Part shown: in pieces, positions 53,707-57,972 of the stretch
Layout of the letters: each line of letters starts with the position of its first letter
Numbering within the stretch: position 1 is the stretch's first letter
NCBI GenBank assembly: GCA_034665065.1
Contig: JAXDGL010000001.1
Location: 34,691-98,690, forward strand
Direction of reading: 5' to 3'
DNA length: 64,000 bases
Source of the DNA: Thermoanaerobaculia bacterium
GTDB lineage: Bacteria; Acidobacteriota; Thermoanaerobaculia; Gp7-AA8
Notes under the pieces: model-generated
The model's database searches: none
The model's input: only the letters and a program-made list of their open reading frames with translations
Told to the model about the DNA's origin: nothing
Made by a program: the position numbers and the translations under genes

Positions 53707-55419
53707 GTGCTCTCACCCGAACAGCAGCTCGGACCCTACCGCCTCATCGCTCGTGTCGGTGCAGGCGGCATGGGCGAGGTGTGGCGGGCCGAGGATTCGC
53801 GGCTGGGCCGCATCGTGGCGATCAAGGTCCTGCCGCCGAGTTTCGTTGCCGATGCCGAGGCGACGTCGCGGCTCAAGAGGGAAGCGAGGACGGCGGCGCA
53901 GCTCTATCACCCATCGATCGCCACGATCCACTCGATCGAGCAGGATGGCGATCACATCTTCATCGTCGAGGAGTTCGTCGAAGGGGAATCGCTGACGAAG
54001 GTCATCAAGCGCGGCGGGCTTCCGGAGCCGGAGATCTGCCGCATCGTTCGCGCCGTCGCCGATGCGCTGGCCGAGGCGCATGCGAAAGGCATCGTTCACC
54101 GCGACATCAAGCCCGACAACATCATCGTCAGCGGCAATCGCGTGAAGGTTCTCGACTTCGGCATCGCCAAGCAGGTCGGCGTCACCGGCGCCGCTCCCGA
54201 GACGTTCGTCACGCAGCAAGGCATGATCCTCGGCACCATCCACTACATGTCCCCCGAGCAGGCCCTCGGCAGAAACCTCGACGGCCGCACGGATGTGTTC
54301 TCGCTCGGCGTCGTGTTGTACGAAATGGCCACCGGACGCAAGCCCTTCGAAGGCGAGACGATCACCGAGACGATGACGCAGATCATCCGCGACGAGCCGG
54401 CGGACGCCGCGATCCTCAATCCGGGCATGTCGGCCGGGCTGAAGTCGATCATCGAACGATCGATGCGGAAGAATCCGGCGGAGCGATTCACTGCCGCGGA
54501 ATTGGTCTCGGCACTCGACGAACAACTCGGCCGGGCACGGACCGCGCCCTACACATCGGAGCAATCGGGCACACCGACCGTTGTTTCGTCGCCGGTCGCA
54601 GCCGCTCCATCCGCGGCGGCTCCGACGATCCGAACCGGACCGCAGGCCGCAACCGTGCAGCAGTCGGTGCAACCAGCAGCGAAGTCGCGGCGTGGTTTGC
54701 TGGCGGCCATACTCATCGTCCTGTTCATCGTCATGGCCGCTGCAGCGGTGGCGGTCGTATCACTGTTTCGCTCCGAGCCGGCGACAGTGACGACGCAGAC
54801 GACGACGGCAAAGCCGGCCGCGCCGCAGTCATCGACATCCGTCAGTGTGACTGCGCCTCCCGAGGCAACGGTCGAAGAGACATCGACGGCGGCGGATACG
54901 GCGGACGACGCGTCGACCGAGGGATTGACTAGAGTCGGATCGGCAAAGCCGGCGACCGATACGTCAGAATCTGCGGATGCCGAGCAGGAGACCGTAACGG
55001 AATCGGCGCCGACGGAGGGCGCAGACGCTCTTTACATGCACGCAATGACGCAGATTGCCAGTGGCGATTCGATCGAGGCGAGAAAAACACTGCATCGCGT
55101 GATTCAGCAGGATCCGCATTACGCCAAGGCGCACTTCCGCATGGGCGAGATCGCGCTTCTCAATCGCAATCTCGACTACGCGAGCAAAGAGCTGCAAAAG
55201 GCGCTGGACGATCCGGACCGGCTCGGCGTACGCGAGGAGCGGCTCGCGCGGCTCGGACTGGCCTTGGCTGCTCACGAGCGTCCGGAGATCCGGCGGCTCA
55301 GCATGGAGATCTGGCAGCGCTGGCCGGGCGACCCCGACCTGATCCAGATGCGCGCGACGTTCCCCGGAATGTTCGGTGAAGGAATGCGCGATCGCGAACG
55401 GCGCTGGCAACGGCCGTAG
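53707..55419 (+). CDS. Hanks-type Ser/Thr protein kinase with TM helix and C-terminal TPR
   Basis: GAGGMGEV, VAIKVL, HRDIKPDN, DFGIAK and GTIHYMSPEQ motifs; TM helix; DPHYAKAHFRMGEIAL TPR. Confidence 0.95.
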   Translation: MLSPEQQLGPYRLIARVGAGGMGEVWRAEDSRLGRIVAIKVLPPSFVADAEATSRLKREARTAAQLYHPSIATIHSIEQDGDHIFIVEEFVEGESLTKVIKRGGLPEPEICRIVRAVADALAEAHAKGIVHRDIKPDNIIVSGNRVKVLDFGIAKQVGVTGAAPETFVTQQGMILGTIHYMSPEQALGRNLDGRTDVFSLGVVLYEMATGRKPFEGETITETMTQIIRDEPADAAILNPGMSAGLKSIIERSMRKNPAERFTAAELVSALDEQLGRARTAPYTSEQSGTPTVVSSPVAAAPSAAAPTIRTGPQAATVQQSVQPAAKSRRGLLAAILIVLFIVMAAAAVAVVSLFRSEPATVTTQTTTAKPAAPQSSTSVSVTAPPEATVEETSTAADTADDASTEGLTRVGSAKPATDTSESADAEQETVTESAPTEGADALYMHAMTQIASGDSIEARKTLHRVIQQDPHYAKAHFRMGEIALLNRNLDYASKELQKALDDPDRLGVREERLARLGLALAAHERPEIRRLSMEIWQRWPGDPDLIQMRATFPGMFGEGMRDRERRWQRP

Positions 55420-55852
55420 CCGCGACATCGCGCCCACGTCACTCTCATCTTGAGAAACCGTCATCCTGAGCCGCCGAAGCCGCCGCCTTCACGCTGCTCG
55501 TACAACCGGTACACACCGGCGGCGGAGGACGGTCGAAGGGCGAAGGATCAGCACATCACCATCTCTGACGCGATCGAGGCGGCGATTCTCGAAAACATCA
55601 TGGTCCCTGAGGTCGAGCGGATGATGAAGCGGTCACCAGAGTTCGCGCGTATCGCGAAGGATTGGATGCAAAGCGCAAAGATCAGGCGGACATGATGGCG
55701 ACGAAAGGGAAGCGAAAAGATCCGACGGATCGATGCGGCAAGGGAATTCCTTCATAAGAACAGCGAGGACATACTCCGGCGTGCTGAGTCGCACGCCAGC
55801 GTGACGCGCGAAAAGTTGGTGCTGGAGATCGCGTGAGAGCGAGAAGCGCACA

Positions 55853-56686
55853 TCACGTATCTGCCTTGGCTCCGATTATTAGGATGCATCCGCGTCCTTC
55901 TCGATCTAGTAGGGTCGCCGGTATCCCTGCTTCCGCCATCGCCCGATGAAGAGCGGTCCCGAATGTTGGTTGACTCCCGTGTAGCGTCATCGGTACGTCA
56001 AGAACAAAGATCCCGGAGCGGTAGTAATCGGTGTCACGGTTGGCCACATACTCCGGGCGCAGGACTGATAGAAACACGTGAAATTCCAGCGACACTAAAA
56101 GATCATGGAACTCCTGTGCGTACGGCGCGCAGTCACTGCCCGGCGCGTAATAGATGGCGATCCCCGGAATGCCGTGCCTGTATTGCCAAGCACGAGCGAC
56201 ACCTTGTAACCGCCCGCGAATGATCTCTCTCTCGGTTGCTGACAGGTGGCGTGGCGCATCACGCTCCATCGCCGCGAGAATCGGCACGACTTCCTGAAGT
56301 CGAAGTTTTTGGGCGGCCACAAGGCTTGCCAACTCAGCATTGCGCGCCTGAAGTTCGGCGATCTCTGTGCTTTGGGCGGCGATCTTTTTTTCCTGCCGTT
56401 CTCGCGTTTCCGCAAACTGCGGATACGAGACGCCGGTTATGGCTGGAACTCCTACGAGTCCATACCAAGCCGCGCGTGCGAAACAAATGACAGCGCCAAC
56501 GAACGATGAGGTAGCAATTGCGACCGAAGTTTCCGGCGAAAGCCATGCGTGTGGAAACGTCATGGTCGCACCTATGCCGACAAATGCGAGGCCATACCCG
56601 GTCCACACCGCCGCCCATGTCGGATCGCGCTTGCGAAGTTGGACTGCTGCCATCGCGTGGAAGGGTATCGCACCACCACGGCCCAA
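55853..56686 (-). CDS. Hypothetical protein: 2 TM + coiled coil + alpha/beta domain
   Basis: Longest ORF in the insert. Start uncertain (MAAVQ is likely). Atypical codon usage. Confidence 0.6.
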   Translation of the reverse strand: MGRGGAIPFHAMAAVQLRKRDPTWAAVWTGYGLAFVGIGATMTFPHAWLSPETSVAIATSSFVGAVICFARAAWYGLVGVPAITGVSYPQFAETRERQEKKIAAQSTEIAELQARNAELASLVAAQKLRLQEVVPILAAMERDAPRHLSATEREIIRGRLQGVARAWQYRHGIPGIAIYYAPGSDCAPYAQEFHDLLVSLEFHVFLSVLRPEYVANRDTDYYRSGIFVLDVPMTLHGSQPTFGTALHRAMAEAGIPATLLDREGRGCILIIGAKADT

Positions 56687-56723
56687 CGACCGCAGGTTAT
56701 CGGCTGTTTTGAGAACAGGCCGT

Positions 56724-56777
56724 GGACTTTATGTGCAGACATCGGACTTAATGTGCAGAAAGGACTTTGTGTGCAAA
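56724..56777. repeat. Three 16-bp direct repeats GGACTTWRTGTGCARA
   Basis: Copies at 56724, 56744 and 56762. Confidence 0.85.
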
Positions 56778-56964
56778 GCCGGTCGAAGGACCCCCTGATT
56801 GTGTGCAACAGCGCCTGACGAAAACCATCGCAAAAGAAGCAGGGGGTCCTTCGACGTCCTCCGCCGCGATGCCTGCCGTTTGTCAGAGCAGCGTGGAGGC
56901 GCGGCTCCGGCAGTCTCAGGATGACAGCGAGGATGACGCGATCCGCTTACAATCCGCCCCGCTC

Positions 56965-57972
56965 ATGTTCGACCCAATCCCATTCGCGAAACAGCTCATC
57001 GATATCCCGTCGCCGAGCGACGAGGAATTCGACGCCGCCGTTTTCCTGCACGACACGCTCGCCGCGCTCGGCTACGACTGCCGGCGTCAACCGGTCAGCC
57101 AGCGCCGCTTCAACCTCTACGCCGCAGCGGGCGGAAGACCGCGCGTCATTCTCAATTCGCACATGGACACCGTCCCTCCCTGGTTCGCTGCGCGCGACGA
57201 TGGCGACACGCTCTACGGCCGCGGCGCGTGCGACACCAAGGGCATCATCGCGGCGATGATCGCGGCGGGCGAGCGGCTTCGCGGCGAGGGAATGCGCGAC
57301 TTCGCGTTTCTCTTCGTCGTCGGCGAAGAGACCGACTCGATCGGCGCGAAAATGGCGAATAGCGAGTTTGCGGGACTCGGATCCGAGTTCGTGCTCGTCG
57401 GTGAGCCGACGGAATCGACGTTCGCCCGCGCCTCAAAAGGGGCGCTGACCTGCTTCGTGCGCTTCGACGGCATCGCTGCCCACTCCGCATATCCCGAGCG
57501 CGGCGACTCCGCGATCAACAAGATGGTCAAGGCGATCGCGGAGATCAACGCAACGAGTTGGGGTGCGGACGATGATCTCGGAGTGACGACGGTCAACGTC
57601 GGCGTCGTTCACGGCGGAGAAAAGCCAAACATCATTCCCGCTGCAGCGGAGTGTCAGATGATTTTCCGCACAGTCACACATCCCGACGTGGTGCAGGAGC
57701 GACTGCAGTCGATCGTTAGCCGCCACGGCGGCACGATCACTGTTTCGCGCGGCAATCCGCCGCAGTTCATGACGGTACCGGACGGCCAGCGCTCCGCCGT
57801 GGTGGCGTTCAACACCGACGTGCCGCACCTCGGCGCGCTCGGCAAACCGTTGCTATTCGGTCCGGGGTCGATTCTCGATGCGCATGGAGCGAACGAGAAG
57901 ATCGGGAAGAAGGAATTGTTGGAATCGGTGACGACCTACGCCGACACAGTCCACTCGCTATGCCGAAACTGA
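56965..57972 (+). CDS. M20 family metallopeptidase (ArgE/DapE-like)
   Basis: NSHMDTV, LYGRGACDTKG, VGEETD, VGEPT and AHGANE motifs. Confidence 0.9.
   Translation: MFDPIPFAKQLIDIPSPSDEEFDAAVFLHDTLAALGYDCRRQPVSQRRFNLYAAAGGRPRVILNSHMDTVPPWFAARDDGDTLYGRGACDTKGIIAAMIAAGERLRGEGMRDFAFLFVVGEETDSIGAKMANSEFAGLGSEFVLVGEPTESTFARASKGALTCFVRFDGIAAHSAYPERGDSAINKMVKAIAEINATSWGADDDLGVTTVNVGVVHGGEKPNIIPAAAECQMIFRTVTHPDVVQERLQSIVSRHGGTITVSRGNPPQFMTVPDGQRSAVVAFNTDVPHLGALGKPLLFGPGSILDAHGANEKIGKKELLESVTTYADTVHSLCRN

Follow-up and report, generated by a model that had tools for sequence, protein, structure and literature searches.

The targeting of repetitive extragenic palindromic (REP) sequences by insertion sequences (ISs) is documented, and is established for families other than the one described here: ISPpu9/ISPpu10, ISPa11, ISPsy8 and ISRm22 insert at a fixed position inside REP palindromes, which serve them as hot-spots (Tobes & Pareja 2006, PMC1525189). 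The best studied of these, ISPpu9 and ISPpu10, are IS110-family elements with DEDD recombinases (PMC12288879, PMC11187229). IS903, for its part, duplicates 9 bp of its target and inserts preferentially at palindromes (PMC2577343 Table 1; PMC13618097). Here we analyze a 64,000-nucleotide stretch of a metagenome-derived genome of a Thermoanaerobaculia bacterium (Acidobacteriota; GenBank assembly GCA_034665065.1, contig JAXDGL010000001.1, positions 34,691 to 98,690; hereafter the window), in which a pair of facing REP arms, a REP doublet, is split by an insert of 1.24 kb. A preliminary description of the window had read this insert as foreign cargo captured by the doublet. The best explanation, which we consider very probable, is instead that a passenger-carrying transposon resembling IS5 and IS903 inserted into an existing REP doublet and is now a decayed remnant with one end only.

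The genome that holds the window (G000; 5.67 Mb in 34 contigs; other genomes are numbered from G001, and extracted loci are prefixed L) was searched for REP arms with nhmmer and an 87-position arm profile. The search returned 368 arm matches: 88 are unpaired, and the rest form 140 convergent neighboring pairs, whose apex measures 46 bp in the median. Eight copies of the REP motif lie in the window, against a chance expectation of 0.04, and the repeat is a multi-copy extragenic palindromic unit that occurs in inverted pairs at a fixed spacing, as do repeats of the REP/REPIN type (REPIN, REP doublet forming a hairpin). The interrupted doublet was rebuilt in silico by joining 55459-55539 to 56790-56925. 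The resulting 217-bp sequence matches about 90 distinct places in G000 over its full length (BLAST; best 82.6%), aligns with 25 genomic doublets in MAFFT (26 sequences in total) without a gap across the junction GGAGGACGGTCGAAGGACCCCCTGATT, and has an apex of 46 bp, identical to the genome-wide median, confirming the initial observation that deletion of 55540-56789 restores a doublet. No arm of G000 other than that to the left of the insert is cut at position 81 of the 87-position model. The left junction (55520-55549) reads ...GGCGGAGGA CGGTCGAAGG / GCGAAGGATC... and the right junction (56768-56800) ...GTGTGCAAAGC CGGTCGAAGG ACCCCCTGATT....

The interrupted doublet lies between a Ser/Thr kinase gene (53707-55419) and an M20 peptidase gene (start near 56965), an adjacency that is conserved throughout the genus. 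Across the genus, the spacer between the two genes measures from 30 bp to 1.87 kb (window 55420-56964 and the orthologous spacers L013-L027): it is a repeat-free 30-64 bp in G013, G010 and G017, holds an intact doublet of the same family in G001 and G005, and in the remaining genomes carries unrelated palindromes, a tandem array of doublets (G014) or an unrelated 1.87-kb insert (G015). In G009, the closest relative, the assembly breaks inside this doublet; two of its contigs, one of which carries the doublet's GGACGGTCGAAGGACCCCC without interruption, share a 19-nt overlap. The empty allele that the preliminary description proposed to look for in relatives is therefore present, as uninterrupted doublets at the orthologous spacer in G001, G005 and G009. 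In these and other relatives, no more than 30-350 bp separate the kinase and M20 genes. As different repeats and inserts occupy the orthologous spacers, the kinase-M20 intergenic site is a general sink for repeats, and the empty spacers and intact doublets of the relatives demonstrate that the insert is foreign and entered a REP doublet that was already there. The same synteny refutes the scenario in which two REP arms came by chance, and independently, to flank a vertically inherited gene. Orphan arms do exist, as the 88 unpaired matches attest, but the left arm stops at model position 81 with its missing bases following the insert, and the rebuilt geometry is canonical. Furthermore, no homology to the insert was found between kinase and M20 in the 11 same-genus genomes with both genes on one contig, and no full-length homologue of the intact open reading frame (ORF) of the insert was found in the 123 genomes that, with G000, make up our taxonomic-family set of 124. 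With nothing but repeats between the kinase and M20 genes genus-wide, vertical inheritance fails, and we assign this scenario practically no probability.

The composition of the insert is atypical, as first described (GC content 0.57, compared with 0.62 for the rest of the window), and a genus-level DNA search with the insert gave matches restricted to its two ends. Its right end, End A (the last ~60 bp), recurs at 80-93% identity at nine loci in eight relatives; at all nine the homology stops at ...GCAAAGCC (position 56780; AAAGCC), and all the downstream flanks differ. The copies of the 14-bp repeat in End A are spaced 18-20 bp apart, the insert terminus itself reading ...GTGTGCAAAGCC, and are presumed to be binding sites for the transposase. 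These boundaries also settle the nature of the 10-bp direct repeat that had been noted at the junctions. The repeat, CGGTCGAAGG, is indeed present on both sides (55530-55539 and 56780-56789), but because the element of the relatives ends at 56780 and the family duplicates 9 bp, it is read as a 9-bp duplication, GGTCGAAGG, plus one coincidental C, the element's terminal C56780 being equal to the C of the REP; the biologically meaningful unit is the 9-bp sequence. The coordinates of all features are collected in Table 1.

Table 1. Features of the interrupted REP doublet and its insert (coordinates are positions in the window unless a contig or locus is named).
Feature	Coordinates	Strand	Details and basis
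REP doublet, left arm (GTCATCCTGAG...GGAGGACGGTCGAAGG)	55460-55539	+	nhmmer match C1:90150-90229, model positions 2-81; alignment with other doublets
Target-site duplication, left copy, GGTCGAAGG	55531-55539		Sequence; 9-bp duplications at six other sites of the element family
Remnant (1,241 bp) of an IS5/IS903-like passenger-carrying transposon, with End A (right) only	55540-56780		Homology of relatives starts at 55540 and ends at 56780; single copy in G000 (BLAST)
Small element gene, 5'-truncated; last 51 codons and natural stop; no Pfam match	55540-55695	+	tblastn, 57-69% to L028 9021-9167 and L029 8452-8607
Next small element gene, decayed; ~33 C-terminal codons recognizable, no proper in-frame start	55696-55839	+	tblastn, L049 (58% over 33 aa, E 1e-8) and L029 8736-8831 (E 0.002)
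Passenger ORF, intact	55853-56686	-	277 aa from TTG at 56686; homologues suggest that the true start is ATG at 56653 (266 aa)
End A: three direct 14-bp repeats GACTTTRTGTGCAR (starts 56725, 56745, 56763), the last forming the terminal inverted repeat ...GACTTTGTGTGCAAAGCC	56725-56780	+	Motif scan
Target-site duplication, right copy, GGTCGAAGG	56781-56789		
Rest of REP doublet: left-arm end ACCCCC, 46-bp apex spacer and right arm (56842-56926, minus-strand arm match)	56790-56926		

The element to which End A belongs is known from full-length copies in G006 (L028, 6.15 kb), G011 (L038, 4.7 kb) and G020 (L034, 3.4 kb). Their opposite end finishes ...TTTAGGTGCAAAGCC, giving inverted termini, GGCTTTGCAC(A/C)(C/T)AAAGTC, at both ends. 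Intact members carry two or three extra phased copies of the 14-bp motif at their termini and a transposase gene at one end, where two further motif copies overlap the 3' end of the gene. The transposase (416-439 aa) has a DDE_Tnp_1 domain (PF01609, E 8e-19) preceded by a SWIM zinc finger at the N-terminus (PF04434, E 2e-6); its best match among six NCBIfam transposase models is NF033579 (IS5_2, 'IS5 family transposase', E 2e-35), and in the catalytic core it shares ~33% identity with IS5-family transposases of enterobacteria. Each intact member carries between one and about nine passenger genes, including helix-turn-helix (HTH) regulators, small ORFs, MazF and proteins with two transmembrane helices (2TM). 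The copy in L028 (8004-14154; G006:C142), for instance, contains two divergent HTH regulators, several small ORFs, a MazF/PemK toxin, a 290-aa ORF and a 239-aa 2TM protein. Duplications of 9 bp flank copies of the family at six other sites (G020 GCATGAGGT, G105 CCCATGAGC, G120 GCGTGGAGT, G004 CCCACTCCC, G014 GGGTGTGGG and G063 CGGCGACCG).

The terminus of the element is present in 21 of the 124 genomes of the taxonomic-family set, vs. 3 controls. In G042, of the same taxonomic family but another genus, there are at least 29 termini, many of them in inverted pairs 125-145 bp apart (e.g., C7:29560-29703), and the ends include ~140-bp miniature copies, which looks like a burst of derivatives of the miniature inverted-repeat transposable element (MITE) kind. 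Named relatives that carry the transposase are metagenome-assembled genomes (MAGs) labeled Thermoanaerobaculia or Acidobacteriota, with copies of 38-44% identity in Planctomycetota MAGs and an archaeal MAG. No homologue of the transposase was found in G000; without a related enzyme in its genome, the remnant in the window is immobile. The earlier statement that no transposase is present is thus correct for the window copy and for G000, and incorrect for the element family, whose full-length copies encode one. Elsewhere in G000 (C3:226618-226676), at an intergenic site with no surrounding transposon, a near-copy of the 14-bp motif occurs as two perfectly inverted units (CTGCACATAAACTC ... GAGTTTATGTGCAG), 31 bp apart; a relic and an operator-like site are both conceivable.

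Judged from these sequences, the family appears to represent an undescribed lineage within the IS5 family, with the IS903 group as its nearest neighbor, a placement that is approximate. It shares with the IS903 group a DDE_Tnp_1 transposase, the 9-bp duplication and a preference for symmetric targets. Its termini start with GGC; the terminus of an enterobacterial IS5-family element starts GG(G/C)C.TTGTTG, and the inverted repeat of IS903 begins GGCTTTG. Unlike in the IS903 group, the transposase is ~120 aa longer, bears the N-terminal SWIM zinc finger and scores below the curated family cut-off; the elements measure 3.4-6.2 kb and hold 2 to about 9 passenger ORFs, whereas IS903 is a compact element of ~1 kb that encodes the transposase only; two to three additional phased 14-bp repeats are present at the termini; and the hosts are uncultured Acidobacteriota (Thermoanaerobaculia), with the 38-44% relatives in Planctomycetota and the archaeal MAG. 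In ISfinder terminology, IS-derived elements that carry passenger genes are transporter ISs or mobile insertion cassettes. The present family is like them in that IS-type ends bracket genes not involved in transposition, and in that non-autonomous derivatives occur (1.1 kb in G009, ~140 bp in G042). The window copy differs from a mobile insertion cassette, which has two inverted termini: only one end is present, its left edge is internal coding sequence, and it is therefore not even a mobilizable cassette.

The position of the insert within the REP arm is not unique to the window. In G009 (C115), a 1.1-kb derivative with both termini lies between the arms of a short-arm doublet and abuts the same REP nucleotide, and in G114 (C63), from another genus, a full-length, transposase-bearing copy occupies the mirror-image site in the opposite arm (...GGGGATCCTTCGACC / GGCTTTGCAC). 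There are therefore three insertions at the same REP nucleotide in three genomes, and as their loci and the interiors of the elements differ, they are independent events. With ~370 arms in 5.7 Mb, a single given nucleotide and orientation makes up ~3e-5 of the sites available, and by our own estimate three matches among ~25 distinct sites are not due to chance. Many other copies of the family sit in short tandem or palindromic intergenic repeats; the family favors repeat DNA and reuses this REP 9-mer. A fixed position inside a REP palindrome and the use of REPs as hot-spots are features shared with the REP-targeting ISs introduced above. The present family differs from them in its DDE, IS5-like enzyme, in its 9-bp duplication and in its use of non-REP repeats as targets as well; ISPpu9 and ISPpu10 are not known to make a comparable duplication.

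The preliminary description had proposed that REPs act as integration sites or as carriers for accessory genes. The first part stands, in that two further copies at the identical nucleotide make the REP arm an insertion hot-spot; the second does not. None of the other ~130 doublets of G000, and no other arm among the 140 convergent pairs, is cut at this position, so doublets are not general carriers of genes. For capture mediated by the REP itself, in which the doublet or the enzyme that mobilizes it takes up foreign genes, one could cite the precise placement of the insert inside the doublet and a second doublet, at C8:195226-195904, with a small GIY-YIG gene in its apex. The insert nevertheless carries a transposon terminus of its own, found at many non-REP sites in other genomes, and the cargo arrived on its own element, as evidenced by the inverted termini, the DDE transposase of the relatives and the 9-bp duplications at many non-REP sites. 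The GIY-YIG gene, in turn, sits at a different position and is present in only four copies. Capture by the REP is most improbable on this evidence. The C8 locus is a short-arm doublet with an apex of 535 bp (median ~46 bp), in which a GIY-YIG-like ORF of ~95 aa lies on the minus strand; of the four copies of this gene in G000, one is in this apex, one beside a doublet and two away from any REP arm, and the gene was rejected as a parent of the doublets for these reasons. In another doublet, at C4:390501-390954, a palindromic repeat of a different kind (GAGGACATCGAGGACAC... in facing copies) is nested in the apex of 286 bp.

The threefold use of one REP position might be expected of a site-specific tyrosine or serine recombinase, for which CGGTCGAAGG would be the core of an attachment site and the phased repeats the arm-type binding sites of a decayed island; the direct repeats that flank the insert and the phased sub-terminal repeats are consistent with such a scheme. 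Neither the remnant nor its full-length relatives encode an integrase, however, and the relatives encode a DDE transposase; the ends of the element are inverted repeats; and the flanking repeat varies by site and is always 9 bp, which fits the duplication left by a staggered cut and not a fixed core. With no recombinase in any copy and flanking repeats that change with the site, the locus is also set apart from integrase-mediated genomic islands, and we find a site-specific recombinase scarcely credible.

The left edge of the insert differs from the right. In agreement with the gene fragment initially noticed there, position 55540 corresponds to the middle of a 102-105-aa gene, of which L028 and L029 have complete copies; the window keeps the C-terminal half, and ~24 or more N-terminal codons are gone. 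Even so, the edge directly abuts the intact left duplication, and the break falls within 1 bp of where the lost transposase end met the duplication. According to the history that we propose, the transposon inserted into the left arm of the pre-existing doublet between the kinase and M20 genes, duplicating the 9-bp target GGTCGAAGG. The window copy has no transposase end and consists of End A, two small genes that are broken and a single passenger gene that is intact. For the one-ended state, we infer a transposase-related event by one of two routes. The transposase may have cut at the end that is now missing, after which the interior was lost and the ends were joined; alternatively, an aberrant insertion may have used End A alone. 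A later deletion explains the structure in the window equally as well as a one-ended insertion. Two other origins of the left junction were considered and rejected. An internal GGATCAGCACATCACC (55545-55560) matches the terminus at 10 of 16 positions, but as a pseudo-end it would place the duplication 5 bp out of register. A deletion through the microhomology CGAAGG, shared by the REP and the interior, would not yield the junction by simple joining, because both copies are retained (CGAAGG-G-CGAAGG).

One-ended transposition is known in IS91/IS801 (PMC3189936), and the second route is likened to it by analogy. Like the one-ended products of IS91/IS801 and of the Tn3 family, the segment in the window runs from one authentic terminus to an arbitrary internal point, although the chemistry is different, IS91 being a rolling-circle HUH element and Tn3 replicative. 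One-ended products of the Tn3 family have been reported to be flanked by a target duplication; IS5-family elements are not known to undergo one-ended events.

Several observations weigh against an IS5/IS903-like transposon inserted at a REP hot-spot. The NF033579 score of the transposase (122.5 bits) is below the cut-off of 140 and the enzyme has the extra SWIM domain, both of which make the family placement approximate; the two flanks of L028 form no clean 9-bp duplication; and the copies of the duplication at G009:C115 differ by one base (TGTCGAAGG vs. GGTCGAAGG). At the window locus itself, the left junction has no terminus and the event that left this copy one-ended is unobserved, a perfect duplication beside a truncated interior is unusual for random decay, and the junctions come from a metagenome-derived assembly. 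The last point raises the concern of an artefact, a remnant from another REP copy having been mis-joined during metagenome assembly: the genome is in 34 contigs, its REP arms are repeated ~370 times and the assembly of the closest relative breaks in this very doublet. Yet the REP copies share only ~70-85% identity with each other, a divergence too great for a k-mer assembler to mistake one for another; one 9-bp duplication event accounts for the two junctions, and the doublet restored from its halves has the median apex of 46 bp. We therefore regard a mis-assembly as highly unlikely. A metagenome scan for the private left-arm sequence of this doublet gave no match.

The passenger ORF is the part of the insert for which a 2TM, coiled-coil and alpha/beta architecture had been proposed, and this architecture was reproduced by AlphaFold2 (mean predicted local distance difference test (pLDDT) 82): two transmembrane helices are followed by a helix of ~55-56 residues and a compact alpha/beta domain with pLDDT >90. 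This C-terminal domain comprises ~150 aa, and R146 and D185 are invariant among the relatives. An exhaustive search of 1.84 billion cluster representatives identified 22 relatives, which split into an N-terminal-module family and a C-terminal-domain family. The dN/dS ratio (non-synonymous to synonymous substitution rates) is 0.13-0.27 against three homologues, with dS saturated, and the ORF is intact and under purifying selection; it would be transcribed from the End A side. On a metagenome contig (L071), the same gene is found beside the same three-repeat terminus (70.7% nucleotide identity), and in L070 the gene is at the edge of a related element.

Searches of the ORF against Pfam, PADLOC-DB 2.0, PHROGs and NCBIfam returned nothing above noise, a PADLOC-DB 2.0 scan of three of its domain relatives gave no match, and neither did a metagenome scan for relatives of the ORF. 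A fold search of the PDB gave no significant match (best E 0.03, template modeling score <0.3, generic Rossmann or phosphoribosyltransferase-like folds), and a search of BFVD gave one, an unnamed phage protein of 188 aa (A0A516ME84, E 1e-8). A 55%-identical homologue on a Joint Genome Institute (JGI) metagenome contig (L069, 6906-8753) lies directly downstream of a TIR-domain gene that matches PADLOC TIR models (Aga_TIR-PNTD1-PNTD2, E 2e-19), with fragments of an rve transposase nearby; this neighbor constitutes a weak association with defense, and the role of defense effector suggested for the ORF in the preliminary description is a guess. An Rfam scan of 55000-57400 gave no match, and a scan for promoters and terminators found none above the shuffled expectation.

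No new mechanism by which REPs capture genes is needed to account for this locus: the cargo rode a DDE transposon that used REP arms as its landing pad, and the insert in the window is a further example of a known phenomenon. A more far-reaching view, possible but in our estimation doubtful, is that of an undescribed, cargo-carrying, IS903-like lineage in Acidobacteriota and, distantly, Planctomycetota, in which the SWIM domain would steer the transposase to the REP 9-mer and to other intergenic repeat arrays, insertion by a single end would be possible (and would explain the perfect duplication around a truncated copy), and the 2TM gene would be a functional module, e.g., for exclusion, addiction or defense, and not random cargo. 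The truncated copy with its perfect duplication hints at a one-ended insertion or a transposase-cut deletion, and its passenger ORF is a member of a rare family built of two modules. Of interest is the occurrence, in uncultured Acidobacteriota, of a SWIM zinc finger joined to an IS5/IS903-like transposase, together with passenger genes and miniature derivatives; in three genomes the same REP 9-mer was reused to the exact nucleotide, which adds an element with a DDE enzyme and a target duplication to the 'REP hunters'.

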